This document shows, one piece after another, positions 246-5,952 of a DNA stretch of 35,439 bases. The stretch is taken from the UHGV virus genome UHGV-0327679. The stretch is one strand, 5' to 3'. Origin of the DNA: a virus. The stretch's first letter is position 1. The number at the start of each line of letters is the position of its first letter. The notes beneath the pieces are model-generated. The model was not told the DNA's origin and made no database searches. It saw only the letters and a program-made list of their open reading frames with translations. A program made the position numbers and the translations under genes.

Positions 246-696
246 TTTTTGCTCCCCACCCTCTAACATCTCCACAATCTCTCCATCGTGCCATCTGCAA
301 CTCAGGATATTTTTTAGCGCCATCTGGATCTTCTAATTGCTGCCGTAGCTGATCGGGGTCATACTTCAGCACATTGGGAAAATAAAACTGCTGCGCACCA
401 TACGCATCATAAACAGCCATAGAATGGCCTTGCACGGTAACGAATTTGGCAATCTGTCCGTTATATACCGGATATCCGGCAGCGTTAATGATGATTGGTT
501 GCGAAACAGGAACGTGAGAGCCGTCTTCGTTCTCTACATAAACCTGAATCTGGTTTTCTGGATTTACCGGGTCAGTGTCAATTTTACCGATATAAATTTT
601 GCCATTGGCATTTGCTTTAAACGAGCGAGCTAAAGTAAATAACTGACTTGGTTGTGAAACAACTACGTTGTATAATTGTTCTGGCATAATAAACAT
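103..696 (-). pseudogene. Tailspike, N-terminal head-binding domain only (P22 gp9-like); receptor-binding domain absent
   Basis: Translation [106 protein letters not shown] matches the conserved P22-type head-binding domain; frame stops at 103-105 about 30 aa into the beta-helix. Confidence 0.7.
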
Positions 697-709
697 TCCG
701 GAGAAAATA

Positions 710-1210
710 ATGAGTAAGAGACGTCACGAGGTAGTAACTCGGGAGCGCCTTATGGAGGTTCTCGATTACAATAAAGAAACAGGAATTTTCACTTGGAAAA
801 AGAAATTAAGCGCCAGAGGTGCTGTTGGGAAAGTTGCTGGCACAATTTCTTATGGATATAACGCAATTAATATTGATGGCGTAAGATATTTTGCACATAG
901 ACTTGCCTGGCTGTATGTATATGGCGAATGGCCCAAACAAGAGATTGACCACATTGATAGAAACAGAAGAAATAACGCAATCTCAAACCTTAGGGATGTC
1001 AGCAGAGTCGTAAATGCATTAAATGTCGGACCTCGAAATAGCAATGCTGGAATCAAGGGGGTAACTTTCTGTCAAGCCAGAAATCAATGGCAAGCTCAGA
1101 TAAATGTCTCAGGTAAAAACATAACCCTTGGGAGATTCAACACCATTGATGAAGCGGCTATAGCTTATAAGGCAGCAAACATGGTTGCTGACCATCTGTT
1201 GAGTAGGTAA
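710..1210 (+). CDS. HNH homing endonuclease with C-terminal AP2-type DNA-binding domain
   Basis: HNH motif [23 protein letters not shown]2-like [47 protein letters not shown] 6 nt upstream of ATG 710; AT-rich; divergent from tailspike start. Confidence 0.75.
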
Positions 1211-2453: not shown

Positions 2454-2469
2454 GTTCACCTCACAATAT

Positions 2470-2486
2470 AGGTCCACGGTGGACCT
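2470..2486. promoter_or_regulatory. Mnt operator (Omnt), 17-bp symmetric site
   Basis: AGGTCCACGGTGGACCT, the known P22 mnt operator, in the arc-mnt divergent region. Confidence 0.8.
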
Positions 2487-2495
2487 ATTGAGAAT

Positions 2496-2516
2496 ATAGT
2501 AGAGTGCTTCTATCAT
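2496..2516. promoter_or_regulatory. Arc operator (Oarc)
   Basis: ATAGTAGAGTGCTTCTATCAT, the known P22 arc operator, just upstream of the arc start. Confidence 0.8.
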
Positions 2517-2543
2517 GTCAATACACTAACTTGGAGTGATGGC

Positions 2544-2798
2544 ATGGCTAGAGATGATCCGCACTTTAACTTCCGCATGCCTTTGGAAGTAAGAGAAAAA
2601 TTAAAATACAGAGCAGAGTCAAATGGTAGATCAATGAACTCAGAATTGTTGCAAATCGTCCAAGATGCTCTATCGAGACCATCTCCTGTAAAAGGTTATC
2701 GCAATGAAGCTGAACGATTAGCCGAGATGCAGGCTGAACAGTTCAAGTCTGTGGTATTTGAGACACTTAAAAACATGTATGGCAAGGATGCAAAATGA
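2544..2798 (+). CDS. mnt: Mnt repressor (maintenance of lysogeny, ribbon-helix-helix)
   Basis: MARDDPHFNFRMPLEVREKLKYRAESNGRSMNSELLQIVQDAL matches P22 Mnt. Confidence 0.9.
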   Translation: MARDDPHFNFRMPLEVREKLKYRAESNGRSMNSELLQIVQDALSRPSPVKGYRNEAERLAEMQAEQFKSVVFETLKNMYGKDAK

Positions 2799-3376
2799 TC
2801 GATTACAACCCAGCAAAAAAAGAAATCATCGCAGCTAAAAAGTGCCTAGAGCAGATGAAATCATCTACAAACCATGATGATTTTGAAATGCACTGGCGAG
2901 AATGTCTTGGGCATATAGAAAAGTCTTTCAGTAAGTTGCTCTGTGCAACAAAGCCGGTTAGTGGAAAATTTAGCAGCCACTTCAACCAAAAGTTCATGCT
3001 TAGAAAAACAGACAAAACACTTGCTTACCTTCACCAAGCAAGAAATGCTGATCATCATTCCACTATGGAAATCTCAAAACTTGAACCTCCTTATACTACT
3101 CTTGGGGCATTTCCTGGAGCAAGAAGCCATTATATTAAAGAGTTAATCATTGATTCAACAGGGAAAATAGCAAAATACGAAGGCGACCCTATGGTAGTTG
3201 AGTTTCATCCAGCAACAACTATGCCTATAACCGTAAGAAACCAAGGCAAAGATTATCCACCTCCAACAGAACATCTTGGCGAAAAGCTTGTTGATATACA
3301 TCCATCTGTTCTTGCCCATCTCGGTATACAATTTTATGAAAAATGGATAGATGAGTCGTGTGCAACGTTTAGATAG
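2795..3376 (+). CDS. Hypothetical 193-aa soluble protein, translationally coupled to mnt (cargo gene)
   Basis: ATGA overlap with the mnt stop; AAGGA Shine-Dalgarno; AT-rich; no motif I can recognise. Confidence 0.6.
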   Translation: MIDYNPAKKEIIAAKKCLEQMKSSTNHDDFEMHWRECLGHIEKSFSKLLCATKPVSGKFSSHFNQKFMLRKTDKTLAYLHQARNADHHSTMEISKLEPPYTTLGAFPGARSHYIKELIIDSTGKIAKYEGDPMVVEFHPATTMPITVRNQGKDYPPPTEHLGEKLVDIHPSVLAHLGIQFYEKWIDESCATFR

Positions 3377-3605
3377 TTATTTTTGATAATTTCAAGTATT
3401 TCCTCTTGACTTTGATTTACCCAAACGTGATCACACTCATGAAACCAGATTATGCTTCCTGTTTCGCCTTGTGCAATATAGGTGATCATGTTTTCATTAA
3501 CAATTATTACTGAGTTATCATGTGCGTAATTTAGTTTTATCAATTCGCATATCCTATCGTGACAAAGTAACTAGAAAAACTAAAGAGGTTGGTGTGTCTG
3601 ATTCT

Positions 3606-4088
3606 ATGAGTTACGCTGTGCTAGTTGCCGCAACTCTATTTATGGGGATAGGGTTGCAGATTGCGTGGTTCTTTTTTTCTAGTTTTATTAAACGCAAAAG
3701 AATTGAATCAAGGATATCTGAGATTTCTATTGCCATAGGGAAAAATGCTGAAAATCCAGAGAATGAGACCTGCGCACTTAATTACCTTAAAGAAAAGTTT
3801 TCCCCTGAAAAATTTGAAAATAGAATTACTGATGCTCTTGGATTGGTAATATCAGTAATTCATATGCCACTAAGTTTGCTGATAACAGTGTGGTACTTCG
3901 CCATGATCGCCGGAAGAATATTTGGTTTCATGAATATAGAGCCTGTAGTTCTTTGGGTTCCAATGATACTGCAACTGTTGTTAAGCGTTGCTATCTTTAT
4001 TTTTTCTGTTTTTATAAAAATTGTCTTTGGAAGATACCCCGGAGAAGCTAAGGGATTTAATAAAGAATTCATAAAAACTATAAAATAA
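3606..4088 (+). CDS. Putative superinfection-exclusion inner-membrane protein (SieA-like, about 160 aa, 3 predicted TM helices)
   Basis: Hydrophobic segments [59 protein letters not shown]; position between mnt and gene 16 equals the P22 sieA locus; start codon uncertain (ATG 3606). Confidence 0.45.
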
Positions 4089-4110
4089 ATGCCGTCCTTG
4101 GCTTACAGTG

Positions 4111-5952
4111 CTACTGCCGTGTCGCTTCGTTAGCTAAGAGCGGGCGCACGGCAGTAGCAGCCTGATTTAGCGCTCTTTCATAAGCTGGCGTTCCAGCTTT
4201 AGTGTTTGCCAGACGTAAGAGCGCATTCCTTGCTGCTTTGGACTCATACAAACGCATCATTGCACCAAAACCAGCCTCAATCCCCATTGATACTCCAAGA
4301 GTCGCAGTTGCGCCAATCGTCCTTATCCTGTTGGCTTGTGATTGCCCCGTCTGAGTTACTACATTTGCGGTGTCTGACCTTGCTGTTTGCTGTAGAACTT
4401 CATGAAGAGCATCGAGCTCTTTCATGTGCTTTCCAGAAAAAATAGTGTTGTAAATTTCACCGCCTGACTGAGATTTAAGCTTATTAACTTCAGTGATGAA
4501 CTTGGCTGGAGAGTCACCGGCCTTTTCCGCTATTTTGCTGACGTAAGCTGCACGCATAGCATCTTTCCCTTTATCATCCAATGCGCTCCAGATTCGTTTC
4601 ACGTCAGATGGTTTTCTGCTTAATACAACGGTATTTATAAGTTCAGGACTGGCTTCACTGCTTGCCTTGTTGAGCTTGTTGGCAATGTTTTTATTAAGCA
4701 CCTTATTATAAACGTTTGCATAATCGGAATTTGCTTTAAGGTATTTTGCTGCGTCTGATGCACCGAGGTTTTTAGCAACTGCGTTACGAAGGTCTTTTGA
4801 CATTGCATTCTCTACCATATTGGTAGCTGCTTTTGCCTGGTTGGGGAAGACCATAGCATCTCCCTGAACATTAGATCTAAATGCTGTTCTGTGCTGACGC
4901 AAGAGATCAAACGTAACATCCAAATCAGTTGCAGGGTTTGCTAATTCTTCGCGTAGGTTACGCAAGGATGTAAGCAGGCTTTGATTGGCAGACGTCCCAA
5001 GCCGTTCCTGTCTTGCGATCGCTGTATTCAGAGCATTCATAGTGTTTGTGGTATCAACTGCGGCATTCCCCATTTTATTGGTGACGTCATTGATAACAGC
5101 GCCAGCGGCATCCTTCCGTCCCCTTAACGTGGTGGTCAGAGATTTCACCACATCATCCGGGTTGTACTCACCAAAACGGTCAAAATAATTACTTACCAAC
5201 TTACTACGCGTTGCATATTGCTCCGCTCGCTTTGAGCCTGTCCCGAGCAAAGCCCCCTCGGCATCCTGAGTAAGGCCGCGAGTGAAAGCATTTTTCGGCG
5301 GGATAACATCAGATGTCATTGGTGTCACGCCAATCGATTCTGATGTGGCAATTTTCTTCGCCACTTCTGGCGCAATATCACCTTTTATAGCCGTTATTCC
5401 ACGCCCTATTCCCTTTGCTGCTGCGGAAAGAACCCCCTGAGCGGCAAGGTTAACTCCGGCATTTTTAGCTGCATTTTGTGCGAAATCGCCTTTCTGATTT
5501 GCGGCCTCTGCCAGTGATCCAATAGCCATGCTTCCTGCCGTTCCAACTCCTGGAACTAAATACCCACCAATTGTTTCACCGGCTTGTGCGTATGGGTCTG
5601 TCGGTCTGTCTACTGGACGATAAACATCATCCAAAACCTTGGGTCCACCAAGCCCATGACTGATTGCATTAATCAGACTTGCGCCGCCCTGCAATACGTC
5701 AAATGGTATGTTTACCAGACCACGACCAGCCTGCTCTGCAATTTGCCCTGCACTTTGACCACCTGTGAGCCAATCGCCAGCTTGTTGCATCAATGATGGT
5801 TCTTCACGTGCTGGTTCATTATTGGCCTGATTAACTGTTTGTTGCTGAACAGCCTGACCAGCAAAATACTCATCAATGGCGGTGCCAATATCTTCCGTGC
5901 TCGTACCATCAGGGAAGGTAAATGTCTTACCGTTTGCAGTTACTTTCATCAT
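4111..5952 (-). CDS. Ejection (DNA-transfer) protein, P22 gp16-like
   Basis: 613 aa, Gly/Ala-rich; position and size match P22 gene 16. Confidence 0.75.

Follow-up and report, generated by a model that had tools for sequence, protein, structure and literature searches.

An open reading frame on the mnt stop codon of a P22-like Escherichia coli prophage: a large unannotated family and a candidate HEPN-like defence protein

UHGV virus genome UHGV-0327679, a stretch of 35,439 nucleotides (hereafter the window), represents a P22-like Escherichia coli prophage in which an open reading frame (ORF) of 193 codons, ORF193, begins on the stop codon of the repressor gene mnt. Judged by its sequence, ORF193 belongs to a large family of proteins that is without annotation. 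At slightly less than even confidence, we favour the reading that ORF193 is cargo expressed in the lysogen and that its product would be a stand-alone HEPN-like nuclease, acting as an abortive-infection or defence effector; every step of that chain is drawn from sequence, predicted structure and analogy. An initial annotation of the window had singled out ORF193 as mnt-coupled cargo with a possible exclusion or defence function. Its observation is confirmed and its interpretation partly supported; expression in the lysogen and a role in defence are what we infer.

The mnt-ORF193 junction and the interval it occupies

The start codon of ORF193 (ATG, 2795-2797) overlaps the stop codon of mnt (TGA, 2796-2798) in a four-nucleotide ATGA, as the initial annotation had stated, and to this can be added an AAGGA Shine-Dalgarno sequence just upstream (Table 1). 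The upstream gene is identified as mnt by its product, which contains both an N-terminal ribbon-helix-helix (RHH) domain (Pfam Arc, 2.8e-27) and a C-terminal Mnt tetramerisation domain (Repressor_Mnt, 3.4e-11), by its divergence from arc and ant, and by promoters and an operator like those of P22. Pmnt (2488-2516, plus strand) and Pant (2521-2493, minus strand) coincide after mapping with the annotated P22 promoters; in a promoter scan these immI promoters gave 10/12 and 11/12 matches, and the 19-nucleotide palindromic operator was matched too. The prophage of E. coli strain Combat2C1 is almost identical to the window (one difference in 1.8 kb). Among 5,426 complete genomes of E. coli, 21 carry the ORF193 gene; it lies directly after mnt in the three examined, and the overlap is identical in all three annotated E. 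coli prophages examined. At a more diverged locus (L039), a homologue with 63% identity to ORF193 is joined through ATGA to a gene for a Mnt-like RHH protein whose identity is just 23%. We had considered this locus as an independent, non-immI context for an RHH-ORF193 pair and rejected it, as its upstream DNA matches the immI region of E. coli prophages.

The segment that carries ORF193 replaces a different one in P22. The flanks, comprising ant, arc, Pant/Pmnt and mnt on one side and sieA and gene 16 on the other, are common to the two phages at 92-93% DNA identity. In blastn, homology to P22 stops at position 2725 (approximately mnt codon 61) and resumes at 3576, 30 nucleotides before the sieA ATG; past the break, mnt still encodes a Mnt-like protein to its end. 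In place of the 850-bp segment of the window (2726-3575), P22 has 740 bp that hold orf59a, the mnt terminator, a 125-residue minus-strand ORF and the putative PsieA promoter (location from PMC10883804), all of which are replaced here. P22 thus likewise carries a small cargo gene, orf59a, within the mnt transcript; it lies 100 nucleotides downstream of mnt, whereas ORF193 overlaps the mnt stop codon. The 125-residue ORF of P22 (BK000583; L001 2389-2766, minus strand) is unannotated, contains an HExxH motif (HECAH), and, within the interval from the mnt terminator to sieA, overlaps the annotated PsieA promoter. A blastn search of sequenced phages with the 850-bp module matched only a fragment amounting to 8% of it.

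A related mnt is carried by 223 E. coli genomes, some of which have a different gene at the junction. In L048 the mnt stop is joined by an ATGA overlap to a gene for a Rap1a/Tai immunity protein (Pfam Rap1a, 9.8e-15), and in L047 by a TAATG overlap to a gene for a ClpP-like protein (CLP_protease, 4.3e-12), while at other loci mnt is followed by nothing, or by an insertion sequence (IS) element (L049). Both alternative genes lie between the same mnt allele and the sieA slot with the same junction architecture as ORF193, and both encode proteins unrelated to it, so what these loci have in common is a hotspot and not necessarily a function. Because other cargo sits on the same mnt stop codon, ORF193 is one of several alternative cargo genes. 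The mnt stop codon may be a previously unrecognised, translationally coupled cargo hotspot of P22-like prophages, used by ORF193, Rap1a and ClpP-like genes. The view that this is a slot for cargo expressed in lysogeny, put forward in the initial annotation, is strengthened by these genes and by the place of orf59a in the P22 mnt transcript.

The ORF193 family and its predicted structure

The ORF193 protein has no hydrophobic segment (its maximum 19-residue Kyte-Doolittle mean is 0.56), in agreement with its first description as soluble. It has no match in Pfam, NCBIfam, PADLOC (PADLOC-DB v2.0.0, no family at E ≤ 1) or the sequences of the PDB, and its sole match is PHROG 23516, of 'unknown function'. 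A word-indexed search, which found 7 and then 29 clusters, had suggested an orphan. This was overturned by an exhaustive HMM profile search, in which 1,773 family representatives (clusters at 50% identity) were recovered at E ≤ 1e-3 and 1,296 at E ≤ 1e-10. The protein does, as initially described, lie outside the named families of Pfam, NCBIfam and PADLOC; it is no orphan, and the members of its family, with a HEPN-like predicted fold and motif, are nearly all stand-alone proteins of 170-220 residues found in Proteobacteria, Acidobacteria, Planctomycetes and Cyanobacteria.

We aligned 141 diverse homologues, most of them 24-35% identical to ORF193. Three residues, W34, R83 and H88, are invariant, and Y78, D73, P157, A82, R70 and H160 are conserved in at least 95% of the sequences (P157 in 99%, H160 in 95%). 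The family motif reads A-R-[N/D/H/G]-x-[D/E]-x-H, and the residue that follows R83 is thus N, D, H or G, as in HEPN proteins. Many HEPN families, though not every one, conserve an acidic residue in helix 2 close to the motif. In the ORF193 family E31, atop helix 2, is glutamate in 66% and aspartate in 11% of the sequences; the near-invariant acidic residue is D73, in helix 3.

The AlphaFold2 model built on this alignment (model m6c6b8d05b70c) has a predicted local distance difference test (pLDDT) score of 96.4 and a predicted template modelling score (pTM) of 0.88. It consists of helices at residues 5-23, 27-55, 60-88 (kinked at 73) and 170-192, and of an eight-strand beta module at 94-154 (pLDDT 93-98) placed between the third and fourth helices. 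According to Anantharaman et al. 2013 (PMC3710099), HEPN domains have at their core an up-down bundle of four helices, and the modelled core of ORF193 is such a bundle, made of two alpha-hairpins. R83 and H88 lie at the C-terminal end of the helix segment 74-88, which is where the location rule of the same survey (PMC3710099) places the HEPN motif, and in Csx1 the motif is directly followed by an inserted beta hairpin (PMC3710099). The model therefore matches the HEPN survey in its four-helix bundle, in the position of the motif and in a beta insert after it. In the model, W34, Y78, R83, H88, P157 and H160 would all point towards the same end of the bundle, as judged from topology and not from coordinates, and the beta insert is a candidate sensor or partner-binding module.

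Structure comparison returned a HEPN domain protein (4nqf_B) at rank 2 with a score of 9.2, together with Csm6 (8jbc_A, 8.4; 6tug_A, 7.5), HepT (7ae2_A, 8.2; 5yep_B, 8.1; 8xdj_A, 7.8), the archaeal HEPN homologue ST0689 (1wol_A, 7.8) and the hypothetical protein TTHA0636 (1wwp_B, 7.8), an MNT-adjacent HEPN protein according to PMC3710099. The MNT of HEPN-MNT is a nucleotidyltransferase and unrelated to the phage repressor Mnt. Two further entries were counted as HEPN-superfamily, a nucleotidyltransferase-like protein (3c18_A, 8.4) and the aminoglycoside nucleotidyltransferase ANT(4')-IIb (4ebj_A, 7.4).

Genomic contexts and competing functions

The contexts of ORF193 relatives are varied. A back-translated motif pattern recovered 26 genome loci, and in six of these (L014, L019, L029, L031, L034 and L035) the family copy is frameshifted or truncated, a sign of a dispensable accessory gene that often decays. 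In phages and prophages the family gene is found after mnt in P22-like immI, at a prophage end adjoining the tailspike gene (47% identity), in the tail-gene region of a siphovirus downstream of the tape-measure gene (48%), adjoining large tail-fibre-like genes (52%), and after gpD of a P2-like prophage (30%). In the first four of these settings it faces the other way from the late or structural genes that flank it, and in the P2-like prophage it runs in the same direction as the tail genes. Relatives on two small mobilisable (MOBQ) Acinetobacter plasmids have Fic and BrnT/BrnA genes around them. In a Rhodoferax type I restriction-modification (R-M) locus (L015 3-5012), a relative lies upstream of hsdR and after an ORF that is HsdS-like by eye only; this position resembles that of the anticodon nuclease PrrC. 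In one acidobacterial genome (L011 2023-3853), a relative lies 8 nucleotides downstream of the gene for an RtcB RNA ligase, a family of enzymes that seals 2',3'-cyclic-phosphate ends. Clustering of the neighbours over 30 loci revealed no shared family that might be a conserved partner or antitoxin.

On the reading that we favour, Pmnt would be active in the lysogen, as extrapolated from P22 and from the sequence, and would give rise to an mnt-ORF193 transcript that might continue through sieA. The plus strand of the spacer between ORF193 and sieA (Table 1) shows neither an intrinsic terminator (fold z = -0.44) nor a good sigma-70 promoter, and sieA may for that reason be read through from Pmnt. 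Ribosomes that terminate on mnt would re-initiate at the ATGA, helped by the AAGGA sequence, so that ORF193 would be made whenever Mnt is made. R83 and H88, spaced as R-x4-H at the end of helix 3, together with H160, D73, Y78 and W34 near the same end of the bundle, would provide a catalytic site. The protein is presumably inactive at rest, because its family has no conserved antitoxin or partner. By analogy with other systems, the trigger might be a product of an infecting phage, acting perhaps by way of the beta insert; once activated the protein would, by analogy with the prophage protein HepS (discussed below), cut RNA such as tRNA and so stop phage growth. In favour of this reading we count the mobile cargo contexts and decayed copies described above, and the presence of another protective gene, that for Rap1a immunity, in the mnt-stop slot. 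The adjoining SieA would separately block DNA injection by P22-like phages.

Several results weigh against this reading. Generic helical bundles score as well in structure comparison as HEPN proteins do, with a designed binder at 9.2 and catenin and vinculin at 8.0-8.3, and the proposed clustering of R83, H88 and H160 follows from the up-down topology of the model only. A Foldseek comparison with the PDB, a check suggested in the initial annotation, returned nothing significant for an earlier ORF193 model of pLDDT 83. None of the 141 family members matches a Pfam family at E ≤ 1, the family profile finds nothing among the PDB sequences, and profile-profile comparison by hhalign, which covered a single HEPN family, HepT/DUF86 (43 sequences), gave a probability of 0.3%; taken together, the Pfam, PDB-sequence and HepT/DUF86 searches revealed no sequence-level link to any HEPN family. 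(PF26900, which is listed for one homologue, was not reproducible in our local copy of Pfam.) Around distant members the chromosome holds mostly housekeeping genes, and enrichment for defence islands is weak; IS1595 occurs three times and R-M and PDC matches are few, and we do not use these as support. Finally, none of 50,697 phage records matched ORF193 in tblastn, and the gene is accordingly known only from prophages and metagenomes. The same search indicates that ORF193 is not a conserved core P22-like gene, consistent with the initial view of it as cargo. With fold and motif in favour and sequence statistics not, we consider membership of the HEPN superfamily slightly more probable than its opposite.

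Of the alternatives, the one that we take most seriously, although we think it unlikely, is that ORF193 is an accessory protein without nuclease activity or a role in defence: a metal- or ligand-binding bundle (with H88, H160 and D73 as ligands), a regulator or an adaptor, carried in a permissive slot. Against this, the invariant pair has exactly the R-x4-H spacing, its arginine is followed by N, D or H, and it is located at the end of helix 3. A gene that turns up repeatedly as cargo, here in five or more types of phage, on plasmids and within an R-M locus, has the distribution typical of a conflict gene, and frequent pseudogenisation fits such a gene as well. A role in the service of the phage, as an anti-defence factor or as a modulator of SieA or of the immI switch (Mnt/Arc/Ant), would suit the location of ORF193 inside the immI regulatory operon and adjoining sieA, and also the lack of any PADLOC match to known defence proteins. 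However, most family members reside in genomes or plasmids that have no immI or sieA context, and other phages bear the gene at unrelated positions, which makes an immI-specific role unlikely; we regard this explanation as improbable.

Equally improbable, in our judgement, is that Mnt and ORF193 form a type II toxin-antitoxin (TA)-like pair, in which a toxic ORF193 would have as its antitoxin the RHH protein, which would also be the transcriptional autoregulator; together they would serve prophage stabilisation or TA-type defence. An arrangement in which an RHH gene overlaps a larger downstream gene by four nucleotides (ATGA) is canonical for type II TA systems, and the coupling is kept at L039 even though the RHH protein there has diverged much further than its ORF193 partner. 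Yet the same mnt allele is coupled to Rap1a, to a ClpP-like gene or to nothing, and there is no conserved upstream RHH or helix-turn-helix partner across the family: the upstream genes examined encode RtcB, a RecD2-like helicase, an ABC ATPase or a YgjP-like protein, or there is no same-strand gene at all. Copies in plasmids and phages are solo, and Mnt has a defined role in P22 as the repressor of Pant. Because family members stand alone and this mnt allele also occurs with unrelated cargo, we reject Mnt as a cognate antitoxin for our main model.

Returning to ORF193 as a defence nuclease, a broader proposal would join it with the hotspot: ORF193 would found an undescribed family of solo HEPN-like nucleases with a beta sensor, acting in single-gene abortive infection, and the mnt stop codon would be a hotspot that ties host-protective genes to the lysogeny circuit, on in the lysogen and outside lytic expression. 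We put this forward tentatively, since the whole is somewhat less probable than the nuclease reading taken by itself. If ORF193 is an active solo HEPN defence protein, about 1,800 sequence clusters that Pfam, NCBIfam and PADLOC miss would be added to the anti-phage effectors. The mnt-stop slot, for its part, would offer a small and readily scanned site at which to look for lysogenic-conversion genes in the P22-like prophages of E. coli and Salmonella, which are very common, and would serve as a natural system for the translational coupling of cargo to a repressor.

Neighbouring features and known systems

The membrane protein encoded downstream of ORF193 is, on homology, hydrophobic segments and position, type-A SieA, and as such already known. 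It is 91% identical to P22 SieA (E 4e-110) and matches PHROG 7745, 'SieA-like', at 6.4e-106. Its hydrophobic stretches lie at approximately residues 1-28, 74-109 and 108-146, and its start is at 3606, not 3607. The initial annotation had described a SieA-like protein with three transmembrane segments in the sieA position; segments and position hold, and the protein is simply SieA. SieA has three predicted transmembrane domains and is located in the inner membrane (Leavitt et al., PMC10883804). It blocks DNA injection, and sieA genes of types A and B are found in the interval between genes 16 and 9 of E. coli P22-like prophages (PMC10883804). The sieA slot before gene 16 is variable, with unrelated genes that have no Pfam match in sibling prophages (Table 1).

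Table 1 Coordinates of features in the window and of replacement genes in sibling prophages
Sequence	Feature	Position	Strand	Description
Window	Tailspike 5' end	103-696	minus	'197-aa' ORF
Window	HNH/AP2 homing-endonuclease-like gene	668-1210	+	HNH_3 (2.5e-16) plus AP2 domain; between tailspike and ant
Window	ant	1321-2289	minus	
Window	arc		minus	between ant and Pant/Pmnt
Window	immI control region	2465-2521	.	overlapping divergent Pmnt and Pant, plus Mnt/Arc operators
Window	mnt	2544-2798	+	84 aa, Arc/Mnt RHH repressor; PGAP 'Arc family DNA-binding protein' WP_000090238.1
Window	Coupling junction	2784-2798	+	Shine-Dalgarno AAGGA 2784-2788, 6-nt spacer, ATGA
Window	ORF193	2795-3376	+	193 aa, soluble; large unnamed family
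Window	Rx4H motif	3041-3058	+	codons R83-N84-A85-D86-H87-H88; C-terminal end of helix 3
Window	Beta-rich insert	3074-3256	+	residues 94-154, between motif and last bundle helix
Window	PPxxHLG motif part	3263-3274	+	codons P157-H160 (P-T-E-H), just before helix 4 (170-192)
Window	69-aa ORF	3334-3543	minus	antisense to ORF193 3' end and spacer; probably not a gene
Window	AT-rich spacer	3377-3605	+	229 bp, ORF193 to sieA
Window	sieA	3606-4088	+	160 aa from ATG, or 164 aa from GTG 3594 as in the P22 annotation
Window	Hairpin	4109-4159	.	-38.9 kcal/mol, z = -5.4; no U-tract on either strand
Window	Gene 16 homologue	4111-5952	minus	DNA transfer/ejection protein; end of late operon, convergent with sieA
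L048	Cargo at mnt stop	2565-3151		Rap1a/Tai immunity protein
L047	Cargo at mnt stop	2565-3355		ClpP-like protein
L003	sieA-slot replacement	4821-5189		122 aa
L047	sieA-slot replacement	3890-4375		161 aa
L048	sieA-slot replacement	3242-3556		104 aa

GC content is 38.8% in ORF193, 32.8% in the intergenic DNA and 34.8% in sieA, against 47.7% in the window as a whole and 47.2% in gene 16, and gene 16 is on the opposite strand, bearing out the earlier description of the region as AT-rich and convergent with the late operon. A strong hairpin sits within the last codons of gene 16, where sieA and gene 16 converge, and is possibly the end of the mnt/sieA transcript. The minus-strand ORF opposite the end of ORF193 was considered as a gene and rejected: its profile matches are weak, with none significant in Pfam, PHROG or PADLOC, it has no tblastn match among the phage records, and is not called by PGAP, and single-nucleotide polymorphisms are too few to judge whether it is coding.

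At the left end of the window, bases 1-79 are the perfect reverse complement of bases 167-245, a fold-back formed by the first 166 nucleotides; bases 1-166 are the reverse complement of the Combat2C1 sequence that precedes and overlaps position 167. Because of this fold-back at 1-245, the interruption of the tailspike ORF is a contig-end artefact and no real truncation. The homing-endonuclease-like gene that follows is present in some sibling prophages and missing from others. Its longest ORF (TTG at 668) overlaps the start region of the tailspike gene, whereas the PGAP start in Combat2C1 (window position ~752) does not.

Among known systems, Csm6 and Csx1 are larger, CARF-fused accessory enzymes of CRISPR systems that are activated by cyclic oligoadenylate, whereas ORF193 has neither a CARF domain nor a CRISPR context. 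HepT/DUF86, the toxin of type VII HEPN-MNT TA systems (PF01934; 5yep, 7ae2, 8xdj), always occurs with the MntA nucleotidyltransferase as antitoxin; ORF193 has no such antitoxin, and its beta insert has no counterpart in HepT. The closest likeness is to HepS, a partner-less HEPN abortive-infection protein of the Gifsy-1 prophage of Salmonella (Sargen et al. 2026, PMC13043305). Expression of HepS is constitutive, and the protein is not toxic until tail-tip proteins trigger it, whereupon it cleaves the anticodon loops of tRNAs (PMC13043305). Like HepS, ORF193 is a single small protein encoded in an accessory slot of a prophage, with no conserved antitoxin or partner and with expression in the lysogen that we infer. 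In its model it also shares with HepS a helical HEPN-type core bearing an R-x4-H motif, formed by R100 and H105 in HepS and by R83 and H88 in ORF193. As far as the predicted structure goes, ORF193 is thus probably a structurally new variation on solo-HEPN defence. If so, it would be the second case after HepS, and a structurally distinct one, of a partner-less HEPN protein that both senses infection and kills.

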